A DNA stretch of 64,000 nt from a virus (lineage: Duplodnaviria > Caudoviricetes): the IMG/VR virus record IMGVR_UViG_2706795719_000001, positions 64,001-128,000 of that record; one strand, written 5' to 3'. Positions within the stretch are counted from its first letter, which is position 1, and every line of letters begins with the position of its first letter. The notes under the pieces are model-generated. The model worked only from the letters and a program-made list of their open reading frames with translations. It was not told the origin of the DNA and searched no databases. Shown here one piece after another: positions 7,480-46,868 of the stretch. The translations under genes and the position numbers were made by a program.

Positions 7480-7504
7480 TATAAATACATATATAATATT
7501 TATA
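7480..7504. promoter_or_regulatory. opposed late promoters for genes 53 and 4
   Basis: TATAAATA on + (7480-7487) and on - (7497-7504). Confidence 0.8.
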
Positions 7505-7516
7505 ACAGGGGGTAAA

Positions 7517-8068
7517 ATGATATTTTCCTTTTTTGATCCAGTTGAATATAGAGGTAAACCTACAACTAATATATTCAAAAATTATAAAGTATACATAAAA
7601 AGAGTTCTTTCTGATTACAAATTAAAAACATATTACATAAAGGGTTCTCCTAGACCTGAAGAATTAGCAAATACATTATATGGCAATCCACAATTATATT
7701 GGGTTCTTTTAATGATAAATGATAATTATGACCCATTTCATGGTTGGATAAAAGGACAAGAGGCTTCTTATCAAAGCGCTATACAACGCTACGAGAACGC
7801 AGGTGGGCAACAAGTTCTGTACCATATAGATAACAATGGCGAAAGATATTATAACCTTGTAGAAGATCCTGATAACCCTGGCCTTTGGTACGATAAAGGC
7901 GATAAAGATATGGAACACTTGCAATATAATGGGCCTTTGGCTGCTGTAGATATTTTAGAAGATGCCATTCTAAGAAATGAAGAATCACGCGAAATAAAAA
8001 TAATTGACCCAAAAGAAATACAATCATTTATTAGTGCAATTATTAGAGAAATGGAAAAATCATTATGA
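7517..8068 (+). CDS. 53: gp53 baseplate wedge
   Basis: RPEELANTLYGNPQLYWVLLMIN (LysM-like). Confidence 0.95.
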   Translation: MIFSFFDPVEYRGKPTTNIFKNYKVYIKRVLSDYKLKTYYIKGSPRPEELANTLYGNPQLYWVLLMINDNYDPFHGWIKGQEASYQSAIQRYENAGGQQVLYHIDNNGERYYNLVEDPDNPGLWYDKGDKDMEHLQYNGPLAAVDILEDAILRNEESREIKIIDPKEIQSFISAIIREMEKSL

Positions 8069-9795
8069 ATATACAAAATACTTATCTTCAACCATTTTTT
8101 GGTGTTGTTGAAGATCGTATGGACCCAAAAAAATTAGGACGCGTTAGAGTACGTATATATGGTGATCACCCATTTTCAAAAACAAAAGGTGACGTAGCTG
8201 GGTTAGAAACTGAAGATCTTTTATGGTTCCAAGTTCTTTTACCGGCAACATCTGCAACAGAATCTGGAGTAGGCAATTCTCCAACCGGAATATTAGAAGG
8301 CTCTTCAGTCTTTGGTTTATATTTAGACAAATATAAAACTTCTGGCATTGTTTTAGGAACATGGGCAGGTATAAGAACAGAAATGCCTAATTACACTGAA
8401 GGCTTTTCAGACCCAAATCAACAATATCCAACAAAACTTGGGAATGACTTAAATGATTTGTCTTTGGGTGGGAGAATAGGTAGAGAATCTATTGTTAACA
8501 TAATTCAAAATGATAATAGAGAAACTGCGCCGAACCCATCAAATACTCCGGCTGGCGAAGAACCAGAAAATAATAATCCAGTATTAACAATAGAAAAAAT
8601 GTTACAACGGGATGAAGGCTTACGTTTACGTTGGTACCCAGATAATGGATACGCAAGTATAGGTATTGGACATTTAATAAAAGCCCAGAAAACATCAGAC
8701 CCAGATTTAATTAATAAATGGATATCAGAACTAGTTGGAAGAAAGGTTACTAATGGCACAATCACTATGGATGAGTGTATGGCTATTTTTAAATCCGATA
8801 TTAAAAAAGTTAAAGATGGAATAGTTAAGCACCCTACAATAGGACCCATATACAAAAAATGTAATGCTTCTAGGAAAATGGCTTTAGAAAATATGGCTTA
8901 TCAAATGGGCCTTGGTGGATTAGCCAAATTTAAGAAAACTCTAAAATACATGGAAGAAGAGAAATGGGAAGATGCTTATATAAATCTTCAACAATCTTTG
9001 TGGTTTAGACAAACAAAAGGACGAGCGTCAAGGGTTTCTTTGATTATTCGTAATGGTAATTTAGAATCATATGGTGAGAAGACACCTAGTAATGCCAGGG
9101 CATTATCATCACAAAGGAATATAAACATAGAGCCTGAAGATCCTTATGTCCCTAACGATACCAGAGTGATGTTTGAAGAACCAAAAACAGAGTATAACAG
9201 CCAATATCCGTATAATAAAACTTTTGGTACTGAGTCTGGGATGATTCAAGAATTTGACGATACACCTGGTGCCGAACGATATAGATTAACCCATACTTCC
9301 GGGACATACCAAGAAATTTCTCCAGATGGAAGAAATGTTCAGAAAATAATAGGTGATAATTATAAAATTGTTCAACAAGATGACCATATACTTGTTCAAG
9401 GTGATGTTAAATTAGTTATTGGCGGTAATTCTAATGTTTATATAATGGGAACTTTAAACCAAACCATAGATGGAAGTGTTAATCAGACAGTTCGTGGTAA
9501 TGTGGTCCAACATGTCGAAGGAAATGTCAAAGCAACAATAGATCAAACAGCCGATATTCTTGTAAAAGAAGAAGCCATGCTTACTGTAGAAAAAGATGTA
9601 ACAGTTAACGCTAATCAAAATGCAGAAATAAATGTTAAAGAGCAAGCAACTGTTAATGCAGAAAATATTTCTGTTAATGCAGAAAAGAAAATGGAATTTA
9701 AAGCTGAAGATGTTGATTTTAGCGCAGTAAAAACATTTTCTGTTGATTCTGGGGTTCTTACTAAAATTACTGGTGCTAATGTACAGGTGGGATAA
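8065..9795 (+). CDS. 5: gp5 baseplate hub / tail lysozyme spike
   Basis: GVVEDRMDPKKLGRVRVR OB-fold, RDEGLR...IGIGH lysozyme, VxGN beta-helix repeats. Confidence 0.97.
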   Translation: MNIQNTYLQPFFGVVEDRMDPKKLGRVRVRIYGDHPFSKTKGDVAGLETEDLLWFQVLLPATSATESGVGNSPTGILEGSSVFGLYLDKYKTSGIVLGTWAGIRTEMPNYTEGFSDPNQQYPTKLGNDLNDLSLGGRIGRESIVNIIQNDNRETAPNPSNTPAGEEPENNNPVLTIEKMLQRDEGLRLRWYPDNGYASIGIGHLIKAQKTSDPDLINKWISELVGRKVTNGTITMDECMAIFKSDIKKVKDGIVKHPTIGPIYKKCNASRKMALENMAYQMGLGGLAKFKKTLKYMEEEKWEDAYINLQQSLWFRQTKGRASRVSLIIRNGNLESYGEKTPSNARALSSQRNINIEPEDPYVPNDTRVMFEEPKTEYNSQYPYNKTFGTESGMIQEFDDTPGAERYRLTHTSGTYQEISPDGRNVQKIIGDNYKIVQQDDHILVQGDVKLVIGGNSNVYIMGTLNQTIDGSVNQTVRGNVVQHVEGNVKATIDQTADILVKEEAMLTVEKDVTVNANQNAEINVKEQATVNAENISVNAEKKMEFKAEDVDFSAVKTFSVDSGVLTKITGANVQVG

Positions 9796-11861
9796 TGAAC
9801 TATTACGATAAAATAGATGAAGTGGTCTCAAACTTTGTTCATCCATGTGAAAGAGAAGTGCCAGATGGGTTCTATAGACGGGTTAAGTGGGAGCTATATA
9901 ATCCATCAAAAGAAAATAAAGGGCCAGGGAACGGCGAAGAGTGGGATACTGAGATAATAAAAATAGGCACTAGATTATATGACGCGAACCCATTTGGGCA
10001 TAAATCAGAAGAATTCCCGGAACCTTCTGTAGAAGGAGAAGATGAAGAAAAATGCAAATTTTGGTCTAAAAAAATAGGAATATGCTTCAAATCCCAACAA
10101 GAGCTTACTGATTATGTAGAATCTATAGGGTCTAAATTATTACCAGGCAATGATTGGTACGGGGCAGATTTATCTAAATCAAATCTGTTTAAAACACCAC
10201 ATGAATATAAAATGTACCAAATAGAAAACGCTGGTGGGACTTGGTCTAAAACAGGTCCTTCTATTGATAAAAGAACCATGATGATGGTAGACAAGGATTA
10301 TAATATTTCTATCAATTATAATGGCGTTTATGATTCAAGATCCGCTTATTTGAAACATTATGAAGACAAACCATGTACATATGTTGGTATAAGATTAAAC
10401 CTTGATGTAGATTTAAGTGTACCAGGAATACCTGAATCAGAACCTCCTACAATTGAAGGACTTCCACCTGAATTACCTGCATTAATGTTTGCAGCAAGAA
10501 GTTTACCTGCAATTGGATGTATTCCATTTAAAGCTAAATTTCCGTATAATGGATTATCACAAGCAATAGTTGAAGCATGGAATGAATCTAGAAGATCTTT
10601 TAAATTAATATGGGCAGATATTCCTGGCTTACCTGAAGGCGAAGGTTCTATCTGGAGTACCATGTATTCTGGTGTGTCTATTGCTATGGAAGAACTTGGT
10701 AATGCTGCATTGGGTATGTGCCAATATGTCCAACAAATGGCTTGGCTATCATTTAAAGAAGTTATTTCACAAGCATTAAACATTGTTGGTGGTGGTTGGG
10801 ATTTATTAAAATCATTTATTCCTAAAGTAACTATTCTTGGAATAACTTTTGACATAGAAGATATATGTACTTCAGGTAATGGGTTACAAAAATTAAAAGA
10901 AGCTTTTTCTAAATTTGATACAGAAAAAGTAATAGAAGGAATATATGCATTTATAGGAAGTGCCTACGAATATTCTGTAGAGTATGTGAAGGTATTTTCA
11001 AGAGACTTAATAGATGCTTTAACAGATTTATACGACTATTTGTGGTATGTTTTAATGACCGCTGGTGTAGCTTTATGCAAAACCCTTGTTAATTTAGCAG
11101 AAATTTGGTCCATTCCACCATGGATTCCAAACCCATTATGGAATGTTGTGATTGCAGTAAAAGAACTAATGAAACAAATAGAACCATTAGATATGATTCT
11201 TAAAGGTGGATTTCCTGGATTTACTGCTTCAGATTTATATTACATGGTAGAACGAAAAGTCAAAGAACTTATTGATGAAGCATACACCAAAATAGAATCT
11301 TTAAAAAATCAAGCCATTAAATTATGGGAACAAGTAAAAGAGGCAAAAGACAAGTGGCAAAAAGAATCTATAGGATTTAAACAATACCTTAAAGGCATGT
11401 ATGGCGCTGTCAGTGAAGAACTTACTCGTCAAAAAGAAGCTTTAGTACAAGAAGCAAAAGATATATACGAAAATTTATTAGCTAAATATGAAGCATTAAA
11501 TATAAATATAGACACACTTAAAGCTTCTGTTTCTAATGTACTTGAATTAGCATTAAATGAATTAAGAAATCTTCCTATAGTAGCCCAAATAGAACAACTT
11601 CTTTCATTAATAGGAACTTCATTTGATGAGATGATAACCACTATTAAAAATAGTATAACTGGTGCTCAATCATTATATAAAAACTTTACAGATGGAAGTC
11701 GATCACTAAAAGATATATGTAAATATATCTTCAGTCAAATTTCTACATTATCTTTGAGTAAAGTTACTCAATGGATTAATAAATTATTGAGTATATTCGG
11801 TTTAGAAATTAAATTTCCTGAATTAGAACTGTGTATACCATACGTAAAATACGAGGAATAA
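9795..11861 (+). CDS. large unknown protein (amphipathic helices + coiled coil) in place of 5.1/5.4
   Basis: 688-aa ORF, TAATG-coupled to gene 5, ends 1 nt before gene 6; no PAAR motif. Confidence 0.85.
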   Translation: MNYYDKIDEVVSNFVHPCEREVPDGFYRRVKWELYNPSKENKGPGNGEEWDTEIIKIGTRLYDANPFGHKSEEFPEPSVEGEDEEKCKFWSKKIGICFKSQQELTDYVESIGSKLLPGNDWYGADLSKSNLFKTPHEYKMYQIENAGGTWSKTGPSIDKRTMMMVDKDYNISINYNGVYDSRSAYLKHYEDKPCTYVGIRLNLDVDLSVPGIPESEPPTIEGLPPELPALMFAARSLPAIGCIPFKAKFPYNGLSQAIVEAWNESRRSFKLIWADIPGLPEGEGSIWSTMYSGVSIAMEELGNAALGMCQYVQQMAWLSFKEVISQALNIVGGGWDLLKSFIPKVTILGITFDIEDICTSGNGLQKLKEAFSKFDTEKVIEGIYAFIGSAYEYSVEYVKVFSRDLIDALTDLYDYLWYVLMTAGVALCKTLVNLAEIWSIPPWIPNPLWNVVIAVKELMKQIEPLDMILKGGFPGFTASDLYYMVERKVKELIDEAYTKIESLKNQAIKLWEQVKEAKDKWQKESIGFKQYLKGMYGAVSEELTRQKEALVQEAKDIYENLLAKYEALNINIDTLKASVSNVLELALNELRNLPIVAQIEQLLSLIGTSFDEMITTIKNSITGAQSLYKNFTDGSRSLKDICKYIFSQISTLSLSKVTQWINKLLSIFGLEIKFPELELCIPYVKYEE

Positions 11862-11862
11862 A

Positions 11863-13782
11863 ATGGATTTAATTAAAAAACAAATAAACAGTATTCCTGA
11901 AGTATACACTTCAGCCACTTTTGACGAGATAAAAGCAGATTGGATTAATTGGCTTAGAGGCCAAGACGAATTTAAAGACTATGATTTTAAAGGCTCTAGA
12001 TTAAATATTTTATTAGATCTTTTAACATATAATGTGTTATATATCCAACAATTTAGTAATTCAGCCTTATATGAATCATTTATACGAACTGCTTCATTAA
12101 GGTCTTCAGTTGTACAAGCCGCTCAAGATATGGGGTATTTTCCATCATCTATGACCGCGGCAGAATGTTCTATCATGTTAGAATGTACACATAAATTAAA
12201 TCCACAAAGTATTAAAATTCCTAGAGGAACCAAATTTTTAGCATCATCCAAAGATGGCCCAACACAGCCATATAATTTTGTAGTTAAAGAAGATGTTAAT
12301 GTTGTTAAGAGTAAAGATGGTAAATACTACCCAATAATTAATTTAGTCCAGGGCCGCGTTGTTAGAACTGAATTGGAATATGACCCAGATCAACAAATTC
12401 TTATTCGTGATAAATTTATGGACAGGCACACTGTTAGAGTTATGGTTAACGGTGTAAAATGGGAAGACTGGACAGAAAAATCTATTGTTAATATTTCAGG
12501 AACAAGTCATGTATTCTATATGAGAGAAACAATAGATGAATATACAGAAATATTTTTTGGCGAAGGTCAAGCTGATTATTCTGTTGTGGATGGAAGCTTA
12601 CAAAGCCATTATATCGGTGGATTAAAACCCGTTGCTGGGAGTAATATTGTAATAGAATATATTAGAACCGATGGCGGAAAGGCTAATGGGTCTATTAACT
12701 TTAGTTATGCCGATACACTTCAGTATGTCTCTGTAGTCAATATTATAGAAAACTATGATGAATCTGCTGACTATATCGGTGCATTTGGTGGTGGCGATCC
12801 TGAAGATATAGAAAGAATAAGAGAACTTGGCCCAATTAAAAGAGAATCACAAAGACGATGTGTAACTGCAACAGACTATGAATCATTTATTTCTGAACGA
12901 TTTGGTCCTATTGTCCAAGCAATACAATGTTTTACAGATAGAGATAAACCAGGATATGCATTTATAGCAATTAAACCTAAAGAAGGATTAAGATTATCAT
13001 CTGTACAACGTGAAGATATCCAAAATTATCTTAAAGAATATAATATTTCTACCATTACACCAAGTGTAATGTCTCCGAACTACATGTTCTTAAAACATAA
13101 AGTTAAAGTGACTTATTCTATGAATAAACTTTCTGAATCAGAACAGTGGTTAAAAGGACAAATCATAGACCAAATAGATAAATATTATAAAGATGAAGTA
13201 GAAATATTTAATAAAAGTTTCCACAAATCAAAAATGTTAACTTACGTTGATGATGCAGATATTTCTATTTTAGGTTCTTCTGCAGAAATAACTATGGTCA
13301 GAGAATTGGAAAATTTCTTTAAGACTCCAATGGCTGGTGTCAAATATAATAATAAAATAGTCCCAAAAGGATTATTGAGTAATGTATTTGAATACACTGT
13401 TAATGATGATTTGTCTTATGGAGTTAGATTAGCTTCGACAGAACCTAAAGGTGATTTAAAAGAAGGTAAAATTGTTATAGGACCATTTAGACAAGGCGAC
13501 ATCAAAATTAGCCCTTATCTTGGAACAGATTTTGAAAAATTAAAAACATCTGACAATCGTAATAGTTATTTTGTTGTTGGTAAAATCATTCATGAAGAAG
13601 ATTATATTTATTGGGATCTTGGACAATTAAATGTCACAAGTGATAAATTTTTGGTCCCAAGTATAGAATTATATGGAACTCCAGGAGATTCTAATATCTT
13701 TACAAAAGATGGGTCACTTATTGTGTTTGAAAATAATTTAAGACCCGAATACACAGAAATTATTATGGAGCCTATAGCTTAA
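11863..13782 (+). CDS. 6: gp6 baseplate wedge
   Basis: DYDFKGSRLNILLDLL, SSVVQAAQD, RCVTATDY. Confidence 0.96.
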   Translation: MDLIKKQINSIPEVYTSATFDEIKADWINWLRGQDEFKDYDFKGSRLNILLDLLTYNVLYIQQFSNSALYESFIRTASLRSSVVQAAQDMGYFPSSMTAAECSIMLECTHKLNPQSIKIPRGTKFLASSKDGPTQPYNFVVKEDVNVVKSKDGKYYPIINLVQGRVVRTELEYDPDQQILIRDKFMDRHTVRVMVNGVKWEDWTEKSIVNISGTSHVFYMRETIDEYTEIFFGEGQADYSVVDGSLQSHYIGGLKPVAGSNIVIEYIRTDGGKANGSINFSYADTLQYVSVVNIIENYDESADYIGAFGGGDPEDIERIRELGPIKRESQRRCVTATDYESFISERFGPIVQAIQCFTDRDKPGYAFIAIKPKEGLRLSSVQREDIQNYLKEYNISTITPSVMSPNYMFLKHKVKVTYSMNKLSESEQWLKGQIIDQIDKYYKDEVEIFNKSFHKSKMLTYVDDADISILGSSAEITMVRELENFFKTPMAGVKYNNKIVPKGLLSNVFEYTVNDDLSYGVRLASTEPKGDLKEGKIVIGPFRQGDIKISPYLGTDFEKLKTSDNRNSYFVVGKIIHEEDYIYWDLGQLNVTSDKFLVPSIELYGTPGDSNIFTKDGSLIVFENNLRPEYTEIIMEPIA

Positions 13783-16700
13783 TGAAAGCACCTAAAGTTA
13801 CTAGTTTAAGAATAATAAAATTATCTGCTAACCAGGTTCATATTAAATGGGACCCTGTAGGTAGTAATTTTTATTATTTTGTGGAACTAGCAGAATCAAG
13901 AAACGACGGAACGAAAGTTCCGTTAGATAAACTACAATGGCAGAATCTAGGGTATAGTTCTGATAATGATAGATTCATTAGTATTGGAATAATCCCTAAT
14001 ACACATTATTTGATTAGAGTATCTGTTAGAGCAAAGGGGTTTGAACAATCAGATTGGGCATATACAGAAGAATTTTTGACATTTAAATCAAATGCATATT
14101 CTTTTGACCATATGAAAGAATTTACTTTATCTGAACAATTTATTAAAGAAAAATTTGTTAAAAATAACTCAAACTATATTAATTTTAATACTGACCAATT
14201 GTTAGCCTCTTTAATGACAGAAGATTTTCAATTCACACCTAAATATAATGATGTATCTCAAATTTCTAATAAAATATTAAAAGAAGCTAATTTTCATGAG
14301 ATACAAGGAACACCTGAAGGAATAACTAGAGTTTGTTCTGATATCAATAGAGTTATGCCTGCAGAAATGGATGGAGTTTTATATCTATTTGAAAGGTTCC
14401 AAAATGTTGTTAAAGTTTCTAATGATAAAGGGCAGACCTGGAAGTATTATAAAGCTCTAGATGATCGTGTAGGTAATCCTGTTTCTAAAACATGTATATA
14501 TCAATCAGATACAACTTCATACGTTCTAGGCTACGATAGAGTGTTTTATGGCCGTAGAAGTTCTGATGTTAGATGGTCTGATGATCAACATCGTTTTTCT
14601 GAAACAGATTTAACATTTGCAAAAATAGGAGATACTTTACATTTAGGGTTTGATGTCGAGGTTTTTGGCACATTATCATTTTTACCTGGTAACGTATCCA
14701 GATTTGCTGAAGCAATTGCATCCAATAACGATTTTTTATATGTTGCTGCTAAAAATAATTTAAGATTTTTAGACCTTCACAATGCAGATGTAGATATGGA
14801 TGAAGGTTCTATATCATATGGTAAAAAATTATTTGATGAAAAGTCTATAAAAATAACAGATAATGAAAATATCGTTGTTAAAAAAATGGATGTTCTTAAT
14901 GGAGAACTTTATATTTTAGTCACGGGTGAAGTCAAGAAATATTTTATGGACCCAACTAAACCTGAAAATGTTATAGATTCTAAAGATAAAGGCGTATATA
15001 AATTAGTAGATGATAAGCTGGTTCGTGTTTTTGGTAATACTGAAGAAGAACGTAGAAAAATAGAGCATGAATATACCAATATGTCAACTGATGGAAAAGA
15101 ACTTTTTATTAGCTATGCCAATTTTAAATATACCGAATATACAAAAGACGATAAACTAGAAAATGGTATCAAATATATAAAAACTGAAAGCGGACTTTCT
15201 GATAAACATTATCACATGGGTTCTATTAGAACTTCAGACGGTGAAACATGGAAACCATATTATATGAGTTATTACGCTGAGCCATGGTTTACTTGGATGA
15301 ATAGAACAAAAACTCGTGTATGGATTAATAATGATAATCGACCTGTTGTTATATACCCATCAAAAACATACACAAAAATAATCGATACCGTTGGTCCAAC
15401 AGGTGAAGACCGGGTTGTCAAAGAAGTTTGGGATAAAGGCCATGGAACCTTTTATTGTAAAAATATATTTTTTGAAGGATTTAAACAATATTCAGGTGGT
15501 GTATTAATCCATAAAAGTTCCGGCGAAATAGTAGGATATTACGAATATAATTACAGGGTTAGAGATAATGCTAAAATTATTTGGATTCCAAAATTAATAT
15601 GTTTACAGGCTACTTTACAAAACCAAGAACACCCAGAAATATGGGAACCAAAACACAACAAAGGCGAAAAAGATCCTGATTTAAGACCTTTACTAAATAC
15701 AATGATTCCAGATAGTTATCTATTACAAAACAGTAATTTTGAAAAGTTCTGTGAATATTACCTCCAATTTTTATCTGATGGTAAAAACACACATTACAAT
15801 AAATTACTAAATTTAATACGTAATAAGTACCCAAGAGAAACTGATTCTGTTGAATACTTGTGGTCTGAAATAAATAAGCGAAACATTTATTTAGACAAAG
15901 AAAAAAGAGATCAAGTTATTAGATTTTTTGAATCAAGAAAATCTGATTTTTATAGCACAAAAGGAACCGAAGCCAGTTATAAATTCTTGTTTAAACTTTT
16001 ATATAATGAAGATGTTGAAATAGAAATAGAATCTAATTCTGGGTTAGAATATGATATTGTAGTTTATTCTGATAATATCAATGAAGACATCGTCGGACGA
16101 ACAATATACACTCCTACCGGCCGTTGTAATGTCACATATATTGAAAGAGAATATGCCAAAGGAAAATTACAATGGCGTATGACTATTCATAATATGATTG
16201 GTCGTTTTTTAGTAGGGCAAAATATTCTAGGCGAAAGAAGTGATTTTAAAGGACAAATAATCCAAGGGATTAAAGGTAAAGAAATATTATCTAATAAAGA
16301 AGATCTTGCTAATAGGTCTAGAAGTTATTATGTAATGAAAATAAAGTCTAAACTTCCAACATCAAGATATTCTTCTGATGTACTAAGATTTGTCCACCCA
16401 GTAGGATTTGGATTTATTGGGATTACTTTATTAACAATGTTTATAAATTCTGGCTTGTCCCTTAAACATTCTGAAACCATTATCAATAAACTGATTACAT
16501 ATAGGTATGATTCTGGGTATCCTTCTATATGGCCTGATAGAGTTGCTATATTAAAAAATGATATTATAGAGCTCGATCCTATAACAGGAGAAGCGTTATA
16601 TACATTACATCCTAAAGCTGGTGAAGATTTTGATATTCCCGATGATTATGACAAAAATGAAGGCTTTATAGGACCAGAAAAACCATATACAAATATGGAA

Positions 16701-16889
16701 GAGTATTTAAAAAATGTTCCACCTTCTAAGAGAAGACATAAGTATAGTCCTTTATTTGATCAGTCTGGATTAACATATTCTATTTTTAGAGATATGACAA
16801 ATCTACTCATCCAAAGTGATAAATATAGATATAAAGATAATATTAACAATCCAAGGGACCCTGAAAAGCCTTCACAGGAGAAAGTATAA
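13782..16889 (+). CDS. 7: gp7 baseplate wedge initiator
   Basis: 1035 aa; LRIIKLSANQV start, KGTEASYKFLFKLLYNEDV, VHPVGFGF. Confidence 0.96.
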   Translation: MKAPKVTSLRIIKLSANQVHIKWDPVGSNFYYFVELAESRNDGTKVPLDKLQWQNLGYSSDNDRFISIGIIPNTHYLIRVSVRAKGFEQSDWAYTEEFLTFKSNAYSFDHMKEFTLSEQFIKEKFVKNNSNYINFNTDQLLASLMTEDFQFTPKYNDVSQISNKILKEANFHEIQGTPEGITRVCSDINRVMPAEMDGVLYLFERFQNVVKVSNDKGQTWKYYKALDDRVGNPVSKTCIYQSDTTSYVLGYDRVFYGRRSSDVRWSDDQHRFSETDLTFAKIGDTLHLGFDVEVFGTLSFLPGNVSRFAEAIASNNDFLYVAAKNNLRFLDLHNADVDMDEGSISYGKKLFDEKSIKITDNENIVVKKMDVLNGELYILVTGEVKKYFMDPTKPENVIDSKDKGVYKLVDDKLVRVFGNTEEERRKIEHEYTNMSTDGKELFISYANFKYTEYTKDDKLENGIKYIKTESGLSDKHYHMGSIRTSDGETWKPYYMSYYAEPWFTWMNRTKTRVWINNDNRPVVIYPSKTYTKIIDTVGPTGEDRVVKEVWDKGHGTFYCKNIFFEGFKQYSGGVLIHKSSGEIVGYYEYNYRVRDNAKIIWIPKLICLQATLQNQEHPEIWEPKHNKGEKDPDLRPLLNTMIPDSYLLQNSNFEKFCEYYLQFLSDGKNTHYNKLLNLIRNKYPRETDSVEYLWSEINKRNIYLDKEKRDQVIRFFESRKSDFYSTKGTEASYKFLFKLLYNEDVEIEIESNSGLEYDIVVYSDNINEDIVGRTIYTPTGRCNVTYIEREYAKGKLQWRMTIHNMIGRFLVGQNILGERSDFKGQIIQGIKGKEILSNKEDLANRSRSYYVMKIKSKLPTSRYSSDVLRFVHPVGFGFIGITLLTMFINSGLSLKHSETIINKLITYRYDSGYPSIWPDRVAILKNDIIELDPITGEALYTLHPKAGEDFDIPDDYDKNEGFIGPEKPYTNMEEYLKNVPPSKRRHKYSPLFDQSGLTYSIFRDMTNLLIQSDKYRYKDNINNPRDPEKPSQEKV

Positions 16890-44113: not shown

Positions 44114-45156
44114 TATAATAATCCTTCTGCAAATAATGTTCCACGATTTAATGTTAATATTTCTCTAAATGTTATTTCGAGAGTAAAGGTGCTTGGTAAA
44201 TTTGGGGCCATTGCTAGACCATTAAAATGACCATTAGGAGATTTGTCAAATCTTATACTTGATATTTGTGCTGGTCCAAATATGTCAGTTCTTCCATCAT
44301 AAGAAGAGGTTTTACCGAAATTTCGTATAACCCATATTGTTGGATTACTTACAACCAAGACATTAGATAAAAAACTTGTTATATTTTCTAATATTGTTCC
44401 AGAAGTATCAGCCCCAGTTGGAGTATTAGGATTTATTAATGTAGTTTTATACCATTCATCAATAGCTGCTTTAATTTCTTTAGCAAATTTAGATACACCC
44501 GTTTCCCCATAAGAAAAATAACTAAATATTTCATATATATAAAGTATTTGAATTAGGTCTTGGGGTGTTCTTGGGGTTAGATGCCATGTAAAAACTTTAG
44601 TTCTATTATCCGCACCGGCGTACATAGAACGAGCAGTGGTATAAATTTGTTCACCTTTATCAGCCATAATTCCTTGTGTTATAGAATCCAATGCTCCAAA
44701 AACGGCTGTAGAAGCCACATTACTTAAAGCCCCGGTTACAGAACCGCCACCTTTGGTCAATAATGAATCACCAACATCATTAAATCTATGAGAAATATTA
44801 TCTACGTCAGACTGGCTTCTGGGCATTAATATATTTGCAACAGATTCTTGCTTAAATGTTGTAGTTCCACCTTTACTAGAAAAATCTATATTAATAGCAT
44901 CAACGGTACTTTGTTTTTTTCTAAAATCTCTTAAAGATCCAGTATCTCTAGCATTATAATTATATGCAGTAAATAATAAGCCATTTTTATATAAGTCATT
45001 TAATCTAAAATCTAAATCATTATCTGTTCCTGAAGCTCGTTCTGCCGGAAATTGTGCAACTAAAGTTTTTGTCGGGCTAGTTGTGGGATTAGAAGCCCCG
45101 GCCGATACTTTAGTTCCTATATTTTCAACAGATTCTTCTAAAATTTTTAGTTTCAT
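44113..45156 (-). CDS. 48: gp48 baseplate tube cap
   Basis: AQFPAERASG, NLPSTFTLEITFREI. Confidence 0.95.
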   Translation of the reverse strand: MKLKILEESVENIGTKVSAGASNPTTSPTKTLVAQFPAERASGTDNDLDFRLNDLYKNGLLFTAYNYNARDTGSLRDFRKKQSTVDAINIDFSSKGGTTTFKQESVANILMPRSQSDVDNISHRFNDVGDSLLTKGGGSVTGALSNVASTAVFGALDSITQGIMADKGEQIYTTARSMYAGADNRTKVFTWHLTPRTPQDLIQILYIYEIFSYFSYGETGVSKFAKEIKAAIDEWYKTTLINPNTPTGADTSGTILENITSFLSNVLVVSNPTIWVIRNFGKTSSYDGRTDIFGPAQISSIRFDKSPNGHFNGLAMAPNLPSTFTLEITFREILTLNRGTLFAEGLL

Positions 45157-46868
45157 TAATTAACCTCTAGTGCTTTATACATGCCAGGAGCAGCATATCC
45201 TGTTACAGGAGTTTGTTGAATAACAGTTTTATTATTTGCAACATTATTTTGGACATTAGCAGTGTTTGTTGTAGATTGGATAGTAGATTCTGATGTTTGA
45301 ATATTATTAATATTTTCAGCACTAGTATAATCTTGGGATTCTTTAGGGTCTTCAGGCTTAATATTAGGGATTTGTTCTAACAATAAGTCAGATTTATCTA
45401 AGGCCTCTATTCCAAGTTTATAATAATCCGAATCAACTTCTACACTTTGATTATCTATAATTGAGCTTGCTAATTCTCTGAGTTCCCTAGCTATTTTAGA
45501 CAAATTTTCCGGGCTATTTCTTTGAGCTTCAGCCATAGCTATAAGATTATTTAATCTTGCTTCTGTCTTTACTTGTTCTTCTATATTACTAGCTTCAGGA
45601 TTGTTTTGATTAGTTTCTTTAATTGCAGTATCAGCCTGTTCTTGGGTTATAATTCCACCTTCAACAAATTTGGCTGCTTCTTCTTCAACTGTAGTTCCAA
45701 ACATTCTAGCTTTGGCTTTAACAACTCTTGTCCATCCAGAATCTTCTTCTTGGGATGTATTTCTAACATCATTTCCACGAACTTTGGCCATTAATTTTAA
45801 TTCATCATCTGTTGGCATATACCCGGTATTTTTATTATAAGCCTCTATCGCGGCAACTTCTAATTCATCTGCCCAAGTATCTTGTCCCATAGCTCGGAGT
45901 AAAGATGATAATAATTTACCTAATGCAAATTGTATACCTTGCAATAAATTTTCCAAAACATTTACAAGGCCTTTAACTATTGCTAATGTTAAATTACCAA
46001 AATCACCTTCTTTCCAGAATTTTTTGACATCTTCTAATGTTGCAAAAATTGATCTCAATATTGGTGCTAATGGCCCAAGTTTTTCTTCAAAATCATCAAA
46101 AGCTTCATTAAACAATTTACCCCAGTATTTAAAATGGATCATTATCAAATCCATTGCTAATACAACAGCTAACATTATAGCGGCCCATTTAGCAGCAAAT
46201 AAAGCAGCACTTACTGTGTATTTAAATAACATATCTGCTATTCTATTTGTCATACCATACGCAGATTTAAACCCGGTTTTGACATTTTTATTCAAAGTCC
46301 CAAGAATTTTACTTAAAGAATCTTTTTCTTTATTGTCCTTTTTGGGTTCTTTATTTTTCTTTTCTTCTTCAGGTTTAGGTATTCTATCAATATCTTCTTT
46401 ATTAATAATTAAATCTTTAATAGCAGACTCTAGCTTAGAATCTTCAACTGGGACTGGAAGTTTAGAAAATGCTTCTTCTGTTTCAGATACTTCAGGCTCT
46501 ATAACTTCTTGTTTTTCTGGTTTAAATTTCTCTTTTAATAAATTACTTAATTTAGAGATATTAGAAGAAAATGTATCTGATAATTTAGATGTTGAAGACG
46601 ATAAATCCTTTAAACTGTTATTAGTTTCTTGGTTAGAATCTATTAATAATTCAACACCAGCTTGGACATCTTGGACAGAAGAATTTATTTTAGTCGAGGT
46701 GCTTTCTATTGTCTCTGCTACAAGTTCAATACCACTAGATAAATCTGTCAAAGAATCAGAGACAGACCCCATTGAATTAGCAACATTTTCTTGTCCTTTA
46801 GCCTCTTTAGATATTTTGTTTTTTTCTTCTATAACTTTAGTTCTTCTAAATGAATCAGGTGTTTTCAT
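45156..46868 (-). CDS. 29: gp29 hub / tape measure
   Basis: IADMLFKYTVSA + hydrophobic helix, ~570 aa, synteny. Confidence 0.92.
   Translation of the reverse strand: MKTPDSFRRTKVIEEKNKISKEAKGQENVANSMGSVSDSLTDLSSGIELVAETIESTSTKINSSVQDVQAGVELLIDSNQETNNSLKDLSSSTSKLSDTFSSNISKLSNLLKEKFKPEKQEVIEPEVSETEEAFSKLPVPVEDSKLESAIKDLIINKEDIDRIPKPEEEKKNKEPKKDNKEKDSLSKILGTLNKNVKTGFKSAYGMTNRIADMLFKYTVSAALFAAKWAAIMLAVVLAMDLIMIHFKYWGKLFNEAFDDFEEKLGPLAPILRSIFATLEDVKKFWKEGDFGNLTLAIVKGLVNVLENLLQGIQFALGKLLSSLLRAMGQDTWADELEVAAIEAYNKNTGYMPTDDELKLMAKVRGNDVRNTSQEEDSGWTRVVKAKARMFGTTVEEEAAKFVEGGIITQEQADTAIKETNQNNPEASNIEEQVKTEARLNNLIAMAEAQRNSPENLSKIARELRELASSIIDNQSVEVDSDYYKLGIEALDKSDLLLEQIPNIKPEDPKESQDYTSAENINNIQTSESTIQSTTNTANVQNNVANNKTVIQQTPVTGYAAPGMYKALEVN

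Follow-up and report, generated by a model that had tools for sequence, protein, structure and literature searches.

Contractile injection systems had been regarded as terminating nearly always with a PAAR cone or a fused apex. The subject of the present analysis is a gene at positions 9795–11861 (+ strand) of a stretch of 64,000 nucleotides of viral DNA (positions 64,001–128,000 of the IMG/VR record IMGVR_UViG_2706795719_000001; this whole stretch is called "the window" in the following). It lies between genes 5 and 6 of a T4-like phage, and its product of 688 aa (P0001) belongs to a family of large, mostly helical proteins that represent a putative alternative to the PAAR cone or fused apex. 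An earlier note on this DNA had proposed that the gene takes the place of the 5.1 and PAAR genes, and that it encodes either an alternative spike tip or a membrane-active protein delivered with the spike.

The idea of an alternative spike tip is already published for two orthologues, RB43 orf205w and Helios gp203, the tip identity being putative in these cases. Phages RB43, RB16 and Lw1 are devoid of gene 5.4, and orf205w occupies their 5.1–5.4 locus (Mattenberger et al., bioRxiv 2025, doi 10.1101/2025.08.28.672839, PMC12407873). It was described as a protein of ~690 residues, of which 1–220 are mixed alpha/beta and the rest helical, and cryo-electron microscopy of the RB43 baseplate at 17.7 Å revealed an enlarged tip, with a density into which a low-confidence AlphaFold model of orf205w fits (PMC12407873). 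For Klebsiella phage Helios, an AlphaFold3 model of the gp202 trimer with gp203 has a hydrophobic contact like that of gp5.4 and a three-helix core (Viruses 2026;18:942, PMC13611949). This triple coiled-coil core of gp203 comprises residues 287–327, 398–440 and 631–670 and is supplemented by a distal loop; the authors, who state that the function of gp203 is not established experimentally, consider, as a speculation, that this one protein could be the counterpart of gp5.1 and gp5.4 combined (PMC13611949).

Two further systems invite comparison. T4 gp5.4 (PDB 4KU0) is an all-beta protein of 97 aa which requires a tetrahedral metal site (three His and one Cys, binding iron) to fold and to bind gp5. 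P0001 would share with it the proposed job, the genomic slot and the presentation of local three-fold symmetry to the gp5 trimer by a monomer. It differs in being 688 aa long and mostly helical, and each of the two proteins pairs with a different gp5 C-terminus. In phage P1, likened here by its published description only, the PAAR protein UpfC is combined with UpfB, an alpha-helical tripod (PMC13611949). A helical extension past the spike tip that carries a distal loop is common to both cases, but P1 retains PAAR and has, in addition, a second protein, helical and present in three copies, whereas in the Proteus phage described below one chain would do both jobs.

A member of the orf205w family in a Proteus phage

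The phage to which the window belongs is T4-like and infects Proteus; closest to it among the records are Proteus phage PM2 (Bragavirus) and phages of the phiP4-3 type. At the nucleotide level, the gene is 97% identical to that of PM2 and 85% identical to the phiP4-3-type copy. Relative to the latter, the ratio of nonsynonymous to synonymous substitution rates (dN/dS) is 0.05, and it is below 0.08 in each of five segments. Full-length homologues were detected by tblastn in 214 of 50,697 phage records. From dN/dS and these homologues, we conclude that the 688-codon open reading frame (ORF) is a real gene under purifying selection.

The gene is embedded in a tightly packed series on the + strand with the order 53 (7517–8068), 5 (8065–9795), the 688-codon ORF, 6 (11863–13782) and 7 (13782–16889). 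The stop codon TAA of gene 5 (9793–9795) and the start codon of the ORF have one A in common, giving a TAATG overlap ("GGATAATGAAC"), while a single base separates the stop codon of the ORF from the ATG of gene 6 at 11863. Both junctions are thus as described in the earlier note, which had placed the ORF in the late baseplate operon on the grounds that it is coupled to gene 5 and abuts gene 6. The order 53-5-X-6, where X is the family gene, is identical in RB43, Bp7, phT4A, PM2 and SG1.

P0001 matches the profile phrog_5296 with an E-value of 0 and 1184 bits, its residues 1–686 being aligned on 685 profile positions, and the family is annotated as being of unknown function. By tblastn, it is 42.5% identical to RB43 orf205w (YP_239181) over residues 1–685, and the homologues of RB43, RB16, Bp7, SP18 and KP27 as a group show 42–59% identity over ~100% of the length. 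The window also has the other features which characterise the RB43 locus, namely a position between genes 5 and 6 in replacement of 5.1–5.4, the lack of a PAAR gene and a diverged gp5 end, which is of the same type (..VQVG) in both phages. The two differ in their origin, as RB43 is a Pseudotevenvirus of E. coli and the phage in question a Bragavirus-related phage with a Proteus host. As judged by sequence comparison, the Proteus phage protein is a member of the published orf205w-type family of spike-tip candidates and not new in kind. Helios gp203, which is likened here through published residue ranges and is known from AlphaFold3 modelling only, is similar in being a large protein that replaces 5.1/5.4.

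Among the matches listed, all carriers are T4-like phages of Enterobacterales. They comprise the RB43/RB16/Lw1 group, the JS98-type phages Bp7 and SP18 and the KP15/KP27 group, as well as phages of Cronobacter, Citrobacter, Enterobacter, Yersinia, Pectobacterium, Pantoea, Morganella and Providencia. The family is narrow, since a library of 1.84 billion representative proteins holds only 12 representatives of it. Its most distant homologues (P0061 and P0062) are 33–35% identical to P0001; scans of viral contigs for these two found no match, and tblastn with P0061 gave only the same 214-record tally. In Pfam, P0001 has only sub-threshold coiled-coil matches, a search of NCBIfam gave no match, and a sequence-profile search against the PDB sequences gave no significant match.

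Some family members are annotated in a shorter form. The homologue in Escherichia phage phT4A is annotated as having 485 aa, without the N-terminal domain and with a gap of 170 nucleotides (nt) after gene 5 (L006:3846–4016), and BFVD contains pieces of family members of 340–360 aa. These are probably due to frameshifts or sequencing errors and do not represent natural short forms. One carrier (IMGVR_UViG_3300045988_066415) has a 403-aa ORF without a Pfam match between gene 53 and gene 5 (L010:992–2203).

Carrier genomes lack a PAAR gene

As stated in the earlier note, no PAAR/gp5.4 or gp5.1 gene is recognisable in the window, and this also holds for the genome as a whole. PF05488 and phrog_281 have no match, be it in the window or elsewhere in the genome (161,989 bp, 99% complete), which is equally free of matches to phrog_1168 (gp5.1) and to the Tox-PAAR-like domain PF13665; tblastn of T4 gp5.4 and gp5.1 against the genome also found no match. 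T4 served as the positive control for these searches. Its gp5.4 scores well on both families used for this protein, with 39 bits on PF05488, and T4 was recovered by the genome search with phrog_281 at an E-value of 4.9e-39. A search for DUF4280 is not counted towards the absence of PAAR, its control having been silent.

The earlier note had argued that a PAAR gene elsewhere in the genome would speak against its proposal; the whole-genome searches found none. It had also named mutual exclusion with PAAR across phages as a check, and the data agree with such exclusion. None of the 10 carrier genomes tested (the window genome and nine others, all of which are whole deposited records or 98–100% complete) has a match to PAAR (phrog_281), in contrast to T4.

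The gp5 end and the adjacent gene are exchanged as a cassette

Gene 5 of the window encodes the central spike protein with tail lysozyme (576 aa; Gp5_OB with an E-value of 2e-46, Phage_lysozyme, Gp5_trimer_C and phrog_430 with 6e-204). This gp5 is 49% identical to T4 gp5 across residues 1–531. T4 gp5 ends differently, and identity to it drops to 6–14% in the last 50 alignment columns. The window gp5 ends in ..KITGANVQVG, as had been read previously, and in carriers the consensus L-T/S-K-I/V-T/S-G-G/A-N/T-VQVG is near-invariant. The last ~12 residues are almost invariant in 11 carriers, although gp5 as a whole is only 46–52% identical to that of the window. We propose that this "VQVG type" of beta-helix end, encoded by the last 70 codons of gene 5 (9583–9792, + strand), is the docking platform of the tip protein.

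When the last 70 aa of the window gp5 were used in tblastn, matches were obtained in 214 of 50,697 records, with genus and host tallies identical to those of the tip protein. According to these tallies, carriage of the tip gene corresponds one-to-one to the VQVG-type gp5 end.

A natural cassette swap is seen in phages that are very close to T4 on both sides of the locus. One of them (L009, IMGVR_UViG_2974742932_000001; 169,650 bp) shares 99.6% identity in the tip protein with Salmonella phage SG1 (Tequatrovirus). It matches T4 at 98.6% nucleotide identity between gene 2 and codon ~502 of gene 5, and at 97% once more starting 10 nt ahead of gene 6. The region between (L009:3734–6028) carries a VQVG-type gp5 end and the large gene (2.3 kb) in place of the last ~73 gp5 codons of T4 together with 5.1, segC, 5.3 and 5.4 (1.6 kb). 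Salmonella phage SG1 itself (L019) has the same layout, and SG1-like Tequatroviruses are 97–99% identical to T4 on both flanks. When the L009 proteins are compared to those of Bp7, the C-terminal 75 columns of gp5 are 91% identical and the tip protein 73%, whereas the remaining part of gp5 is 62% identical. The replacement in L009 thus resembles the Dhakavirus version, and the phage is a clean natural chimera.

The gp5 end and the tip gene are therefore exchanged as a single cassette, which substitutes for the T4 gp5 end plus PAAR. That the two move together is what a physical partnership predicts. The SG1- and PD112-type Tequatroviruses, with T4 sequence on both sides of the locus and an alternative "gp5 end plus tip" cassette inside, represent a natural experiment. 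With them, phages that are nearly isogenic but differ in having a PAAR or a non-PAAR tip are at hand for comparison, and hosts with deep-rough lipopolysaccharide, on which gp5.4 matters, are one possible setting.

Both versions of the locus contain a homing endonuclease gene. In T4 this is segC, whereas RB16 has an HNH/NUMOD3 gene that separates X from gene 6. In an RB16-type record, the latter encodes 225 aa (L013:6091–6768). Homing endonucleases may be a plausible driver of the cassette exchange.

Predicted structure and conserved residues

An AlphaFold2 model of P0001, built with an alignment of 37 largely metagenomic sequences, has a mean per-residue confidence score (pLDDT) of 87.3 and a predicted template modelling score (pTM) of 0.80. 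The confidence reported by the RB43 authors for their model of orf205w was "low", compared to a pLDDT of 87 with the metagenome-derived alignment used here. The model reproduces the layout that had been read from the sequence previously: an N-terminal domain, a Pro-rich linker, helical blocks and a coiled-coil hairpin.

The N-terminal alpha/beta domain (residues 1–205; 9795–10409) folds alone at a pLDDT of ~94. It is followed by residues 206–290 (10410–10664), which begin with a variable Pro-rich linker of low confidence (209–238; pLDDT 52–70 at residues 220–240 in the full model) and continue with a strand at 240–248 that disappears from the model when the C-terminal part is absent. Residues 297–667 are almost wholly helical. 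Here, three long core helices are modelled at a pLDDT above 90, namely residues 297–331 (10683–10787), 401–438 (10995–11108) and 634–667 (11694–11795), and these correspond to the published core of Helios gp203 (F287–I327, E398–W440 and K631–I670, respectively). Between the second and third core helix, residues 478–580 (11226–11534) form an antiparallel coiled-coil hairpin with helices at 478–532 and 541–578, and the chain ends in a strand at 676–685 (11820–11849). All these segments are encoded on the + strand.

The earlier note had described three similar helical blocks. They are present as three long helices with a common pattern, but they cannot be called demonstrated repeats, as the pairwise hhalign signals between them are weak (E-values of 5e-4, 4.6e-3 and 0.06, with probabilities of at most 31%). 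The second core helix is the most hydrophobic segment of the protein, and the peak 19-residue Kyte-Doolittle mean (1.55, at residues 419–437) falls within it; this value is below the usual transmembrane threshold.

Four cysteines are invariant in the family. Two are located in the N-terminal domain (C18 and C194), one in the strand following the linker (C242) and one in the C-terminal strand (C680). Because T4 gp5.4 needs its tetrahedral metal site to fold and to bind gp5, a structural metal site in P0001 is a reasonable hypothesis; the site of gp5.4 consists of three His and one Cys, and P0001 has its four invariant Cys. The hairpin is exactly 103 residues long in 37 of 37 homologues, yet by sequence it is the least conserved segment; its tip loop (QY-L/K-x-G-M-W) is conserved. 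The fixed length suggests a rigid extension of set length.

A Foldseek comparison, which the earlier note had named as a check, was carried out and gave no PDB match, either for the whole model (nothing at an E-value of 0.001 or better) or for the N-terminal domain alone (best E-value 1.8). For this domain, VIA-align in its wide mode also found no match in the PDB, the best Z being 2.0 among 48,161 chains. Its low fold score may indicate a new fold, or alternatively a non-globular domain that wraps around a partner. With the whole model, VIA-align wide retrieved generic coiled-coil hairpins only, with Z of ~10–11 (11.4 for HlyD), scores of a size quoted for helical models in general. In BFVD, the whole model matched family members only, and the ESM Atlas gave no usable lead (feature scores of at most 0.82, with a pTM of 0.28 for its own model).

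Homology to the two T4 proteins encoded in this slot was considered and rejected. In hhalign, the probability is 0.1% for T4 gp5.4 and 0.5% for T4 gp5.1, and Pfam shows no PF05488 match at E-values up to 0.1. Thus gp5.1, although its gene is replaced by the same cassette, has no sequence similarity to P0001. The small all-beta fold of a PAAR cone was likewise rejected, as the model has 688 residues and is helical across 297–667.

A putative non-PAAR spike tip

Of the possible explanations, we favour one in which the gene product is a structural component of the virion and caps the gp5 beta-helix trimer in place of the PAAR protein gp5.4, and perhaps also of gp5.1. We put the probability of this reading at roughly 0.78. 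The alternative spike tip proposed in the earlier note is thereby supported from four sides: the literature on the orthologues, the absence of PAAR from all carriers tested, the tally-based match with the gp5 end and the cassette swap. The PAAR exclusion in 10 carriers, the matched gp5 end and the natural cassette swap are new here and strengthen the published hypothesis.

On this capping model, the large protein would be seated where T4 has gp5.4, at the C-terminus of the gp5 beta-helix trimer, which is blunt. A single chain could provide a roughly three-fold base, made up of the three long core helices and the short Cys-bearing strands (195–198, 240–248 and 676–685), which would rest on the triangular ..VQVG platform of gp5. 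The rigid antiparallel hairpin (103 residues, ~8 nm), with its conserved aromatic loop, would point away from the phage and, upon contraction of the sheath, would reach the outer membrane ahead of all other parts. The complex of gp5 and tip would then be released into the periplasm, like other spikes. How the two proteins touch, that each virion has one copy and that there may be a metal site are our inferences, while the extra tip density is literature evidence obtained on RB43 virions and not on the window phage.

Several points weigh against a capping role. The RB43 authors call orf205w a "putative" tip and assign the density only "possibly" to it (PMC12407873), and their co-expression of orf205w with a gp5 beta-helix fragment failed (PMC12407873). 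The identity of the two sets of 214 records is judged from tallies alone, and a factor devoted to the folding or assembly of the VQVG-type beta-helix end would likewise be expected to be co-inherited with it. Finally, no experiment in the literature identifies a family protein in any virion. The only virion mass-spectrometry table found, that of Morganella phage MP1, lists nothing between gp2 and gp6 and is uninformative because gp5 is also unlisted; the papers on KP15/KP27 and phiEap-3 contain no mass spectrometry. For binding or co-expression trials, our data provide a design rule, which is to use the cognate VQVG-type gp5 end.

The second proposal of the earlier note, a membrane-active protein borne by the spike, is compatible with a location at the tip and differs in what would happen after delivery. 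In the periplasm, the hydrophobic helices and the hairpin would rearrange, perforate or bridge the inner membrane and help the DNA to enter, a role that can be likened to that of the ejected tape-measure proteins of long-tailed phages. The spike and any cap are indeed expected to enter the periplasm, and the P2 spike has been shown to reach it. Residues ~250–670 have weak matches to tape-measure PHROGs (phrog_1535, E-value 5e-9; phrog_1272, 5e-8), although this similarity possibly reflects just helical composition, and the phage retains its own gp29. Aromatic and hydrophobic residues are conserved in the hairpin loop, and the helix at 401–438 is hydrophobic, but with a 19-residue mean of 1.55 its hydropathy is under the usual transmembrane threshold and there is no convincing transmembrane segment. 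Moreover, the core helices are modelled with high confidence, and AlphaFold3 puts their Helios gp203 counterparts in an intramolecular triple coiled-coil core. Comparison with alpha-helical pore-forming toxins (ClyA/Hbl/Nhe type) gave no significant family match: in a profile search against PDB sequences, Hbl B, the sole toxin-like match, reached an E-value of 0.012 (17 bits) in the coiled-coil region only, with no stretch passing alone; Foldseek had no match at an E-value of 0.001, and VIA-align retrieved generic hairpins. A pore-forming or membrane-active cargo thus finds no support in these results, and we regard this explanation as unlikely. A more elaborate scheme, which we rate slightly lower again, is a single-chain, metal-stapled helical needle. 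In it, C18, C194, C242 and C680 would form a tetrahedral site that ties the N-terminal domain, the linker strand and the C-terminal strand into a gp5-docking base, by analogy with the iron-binding site of gp5.4; after arrival in the periplasm, the fixed-length hairpin with its conserved aromatic loop, along with the hydrophobic helices of the core, would open up and enter the inner membrane to assist DNA passage. If true, this would be a new class of spike tip that joins piercing and channel-assisting functions.

The protein could instead be a non-virion assembly factor, a specialised chaperone or scaffold which serves the VQVG-type gp5 end or the hub and does not remain in the mature particle. 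Its co-inheritance with the gp5 C-terminus and the location of the gene in a late operon speak for this. We nevertheless consider it improbable, as the extra density of RB43 virions lies exactly at the tip and no other gene is a candidate for it, and a 78-kDa protein that is conserved over its full length and has a hairpin of fixed length would be unlike the known small phage chaperones. Hardly credible, in our opinion, is a second tape measure or baseplate hub protein, as implied by some database labels: the homologues H21, H24, H27 and H37 are labelled "tail length tape measure protein" or "baseplate hub structural protein", and there are the weak tape-measure PHROG matches (E-values of 5e-9 or weaker). 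The genuine tape measure and hub protein gp29 is encoded at 45156–46868 (– strand; PF25671 over the full length, E-value 2e-52), adjoined by the genes for gp48, gp28 and gp27. P0001 is unrelated to it, with a BLASTP E-value of 0.18 and no PF25671 among its Pfam matches, and was on these grounds rejected as a tape measure or gp29 paralogue. Because the phages concerned have their own gp29, the labels on the four homologues are very likely wrong; they look like a carry-over from weak PHROG matches in annotation pipelines and are flagged here as such.

Neighbouring genes and promoter motifs

The baseplate wedge subunits on either side of the spike genes were recognised by Pfam, with PF11246 (E-value 3e-69) for gene 53 and five gp6 Pfam domains (E-values of 1e-26 to 1e-42) for gene 6. 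At the head of the 53-5-X-6-7 string, 30 nt upstream of gene 53, the T4-type late-promoter consensus TATAAATA occurs at 7480–7487 on the + strand, as a match to the consensus and no more. Across the window, the motif shows no enrichment, with 22 occurrences compared to 19 expected by chance. Another copy is found within the 3' part of the tip gene (11501–11508), 360 nt upstream of gene 6, and may be due to chance.

In the record of Proteus phage PM2 (L001:15988–19097), gene 7 is annotated as two ORFs, and genes 9, 10 and 12 are annotated as fragments. The PM2 record probably contains frameshift errors. In the window, unlike the PM2 annotation, gene 7 (13782–16889) is one ORF of 1035 codons.

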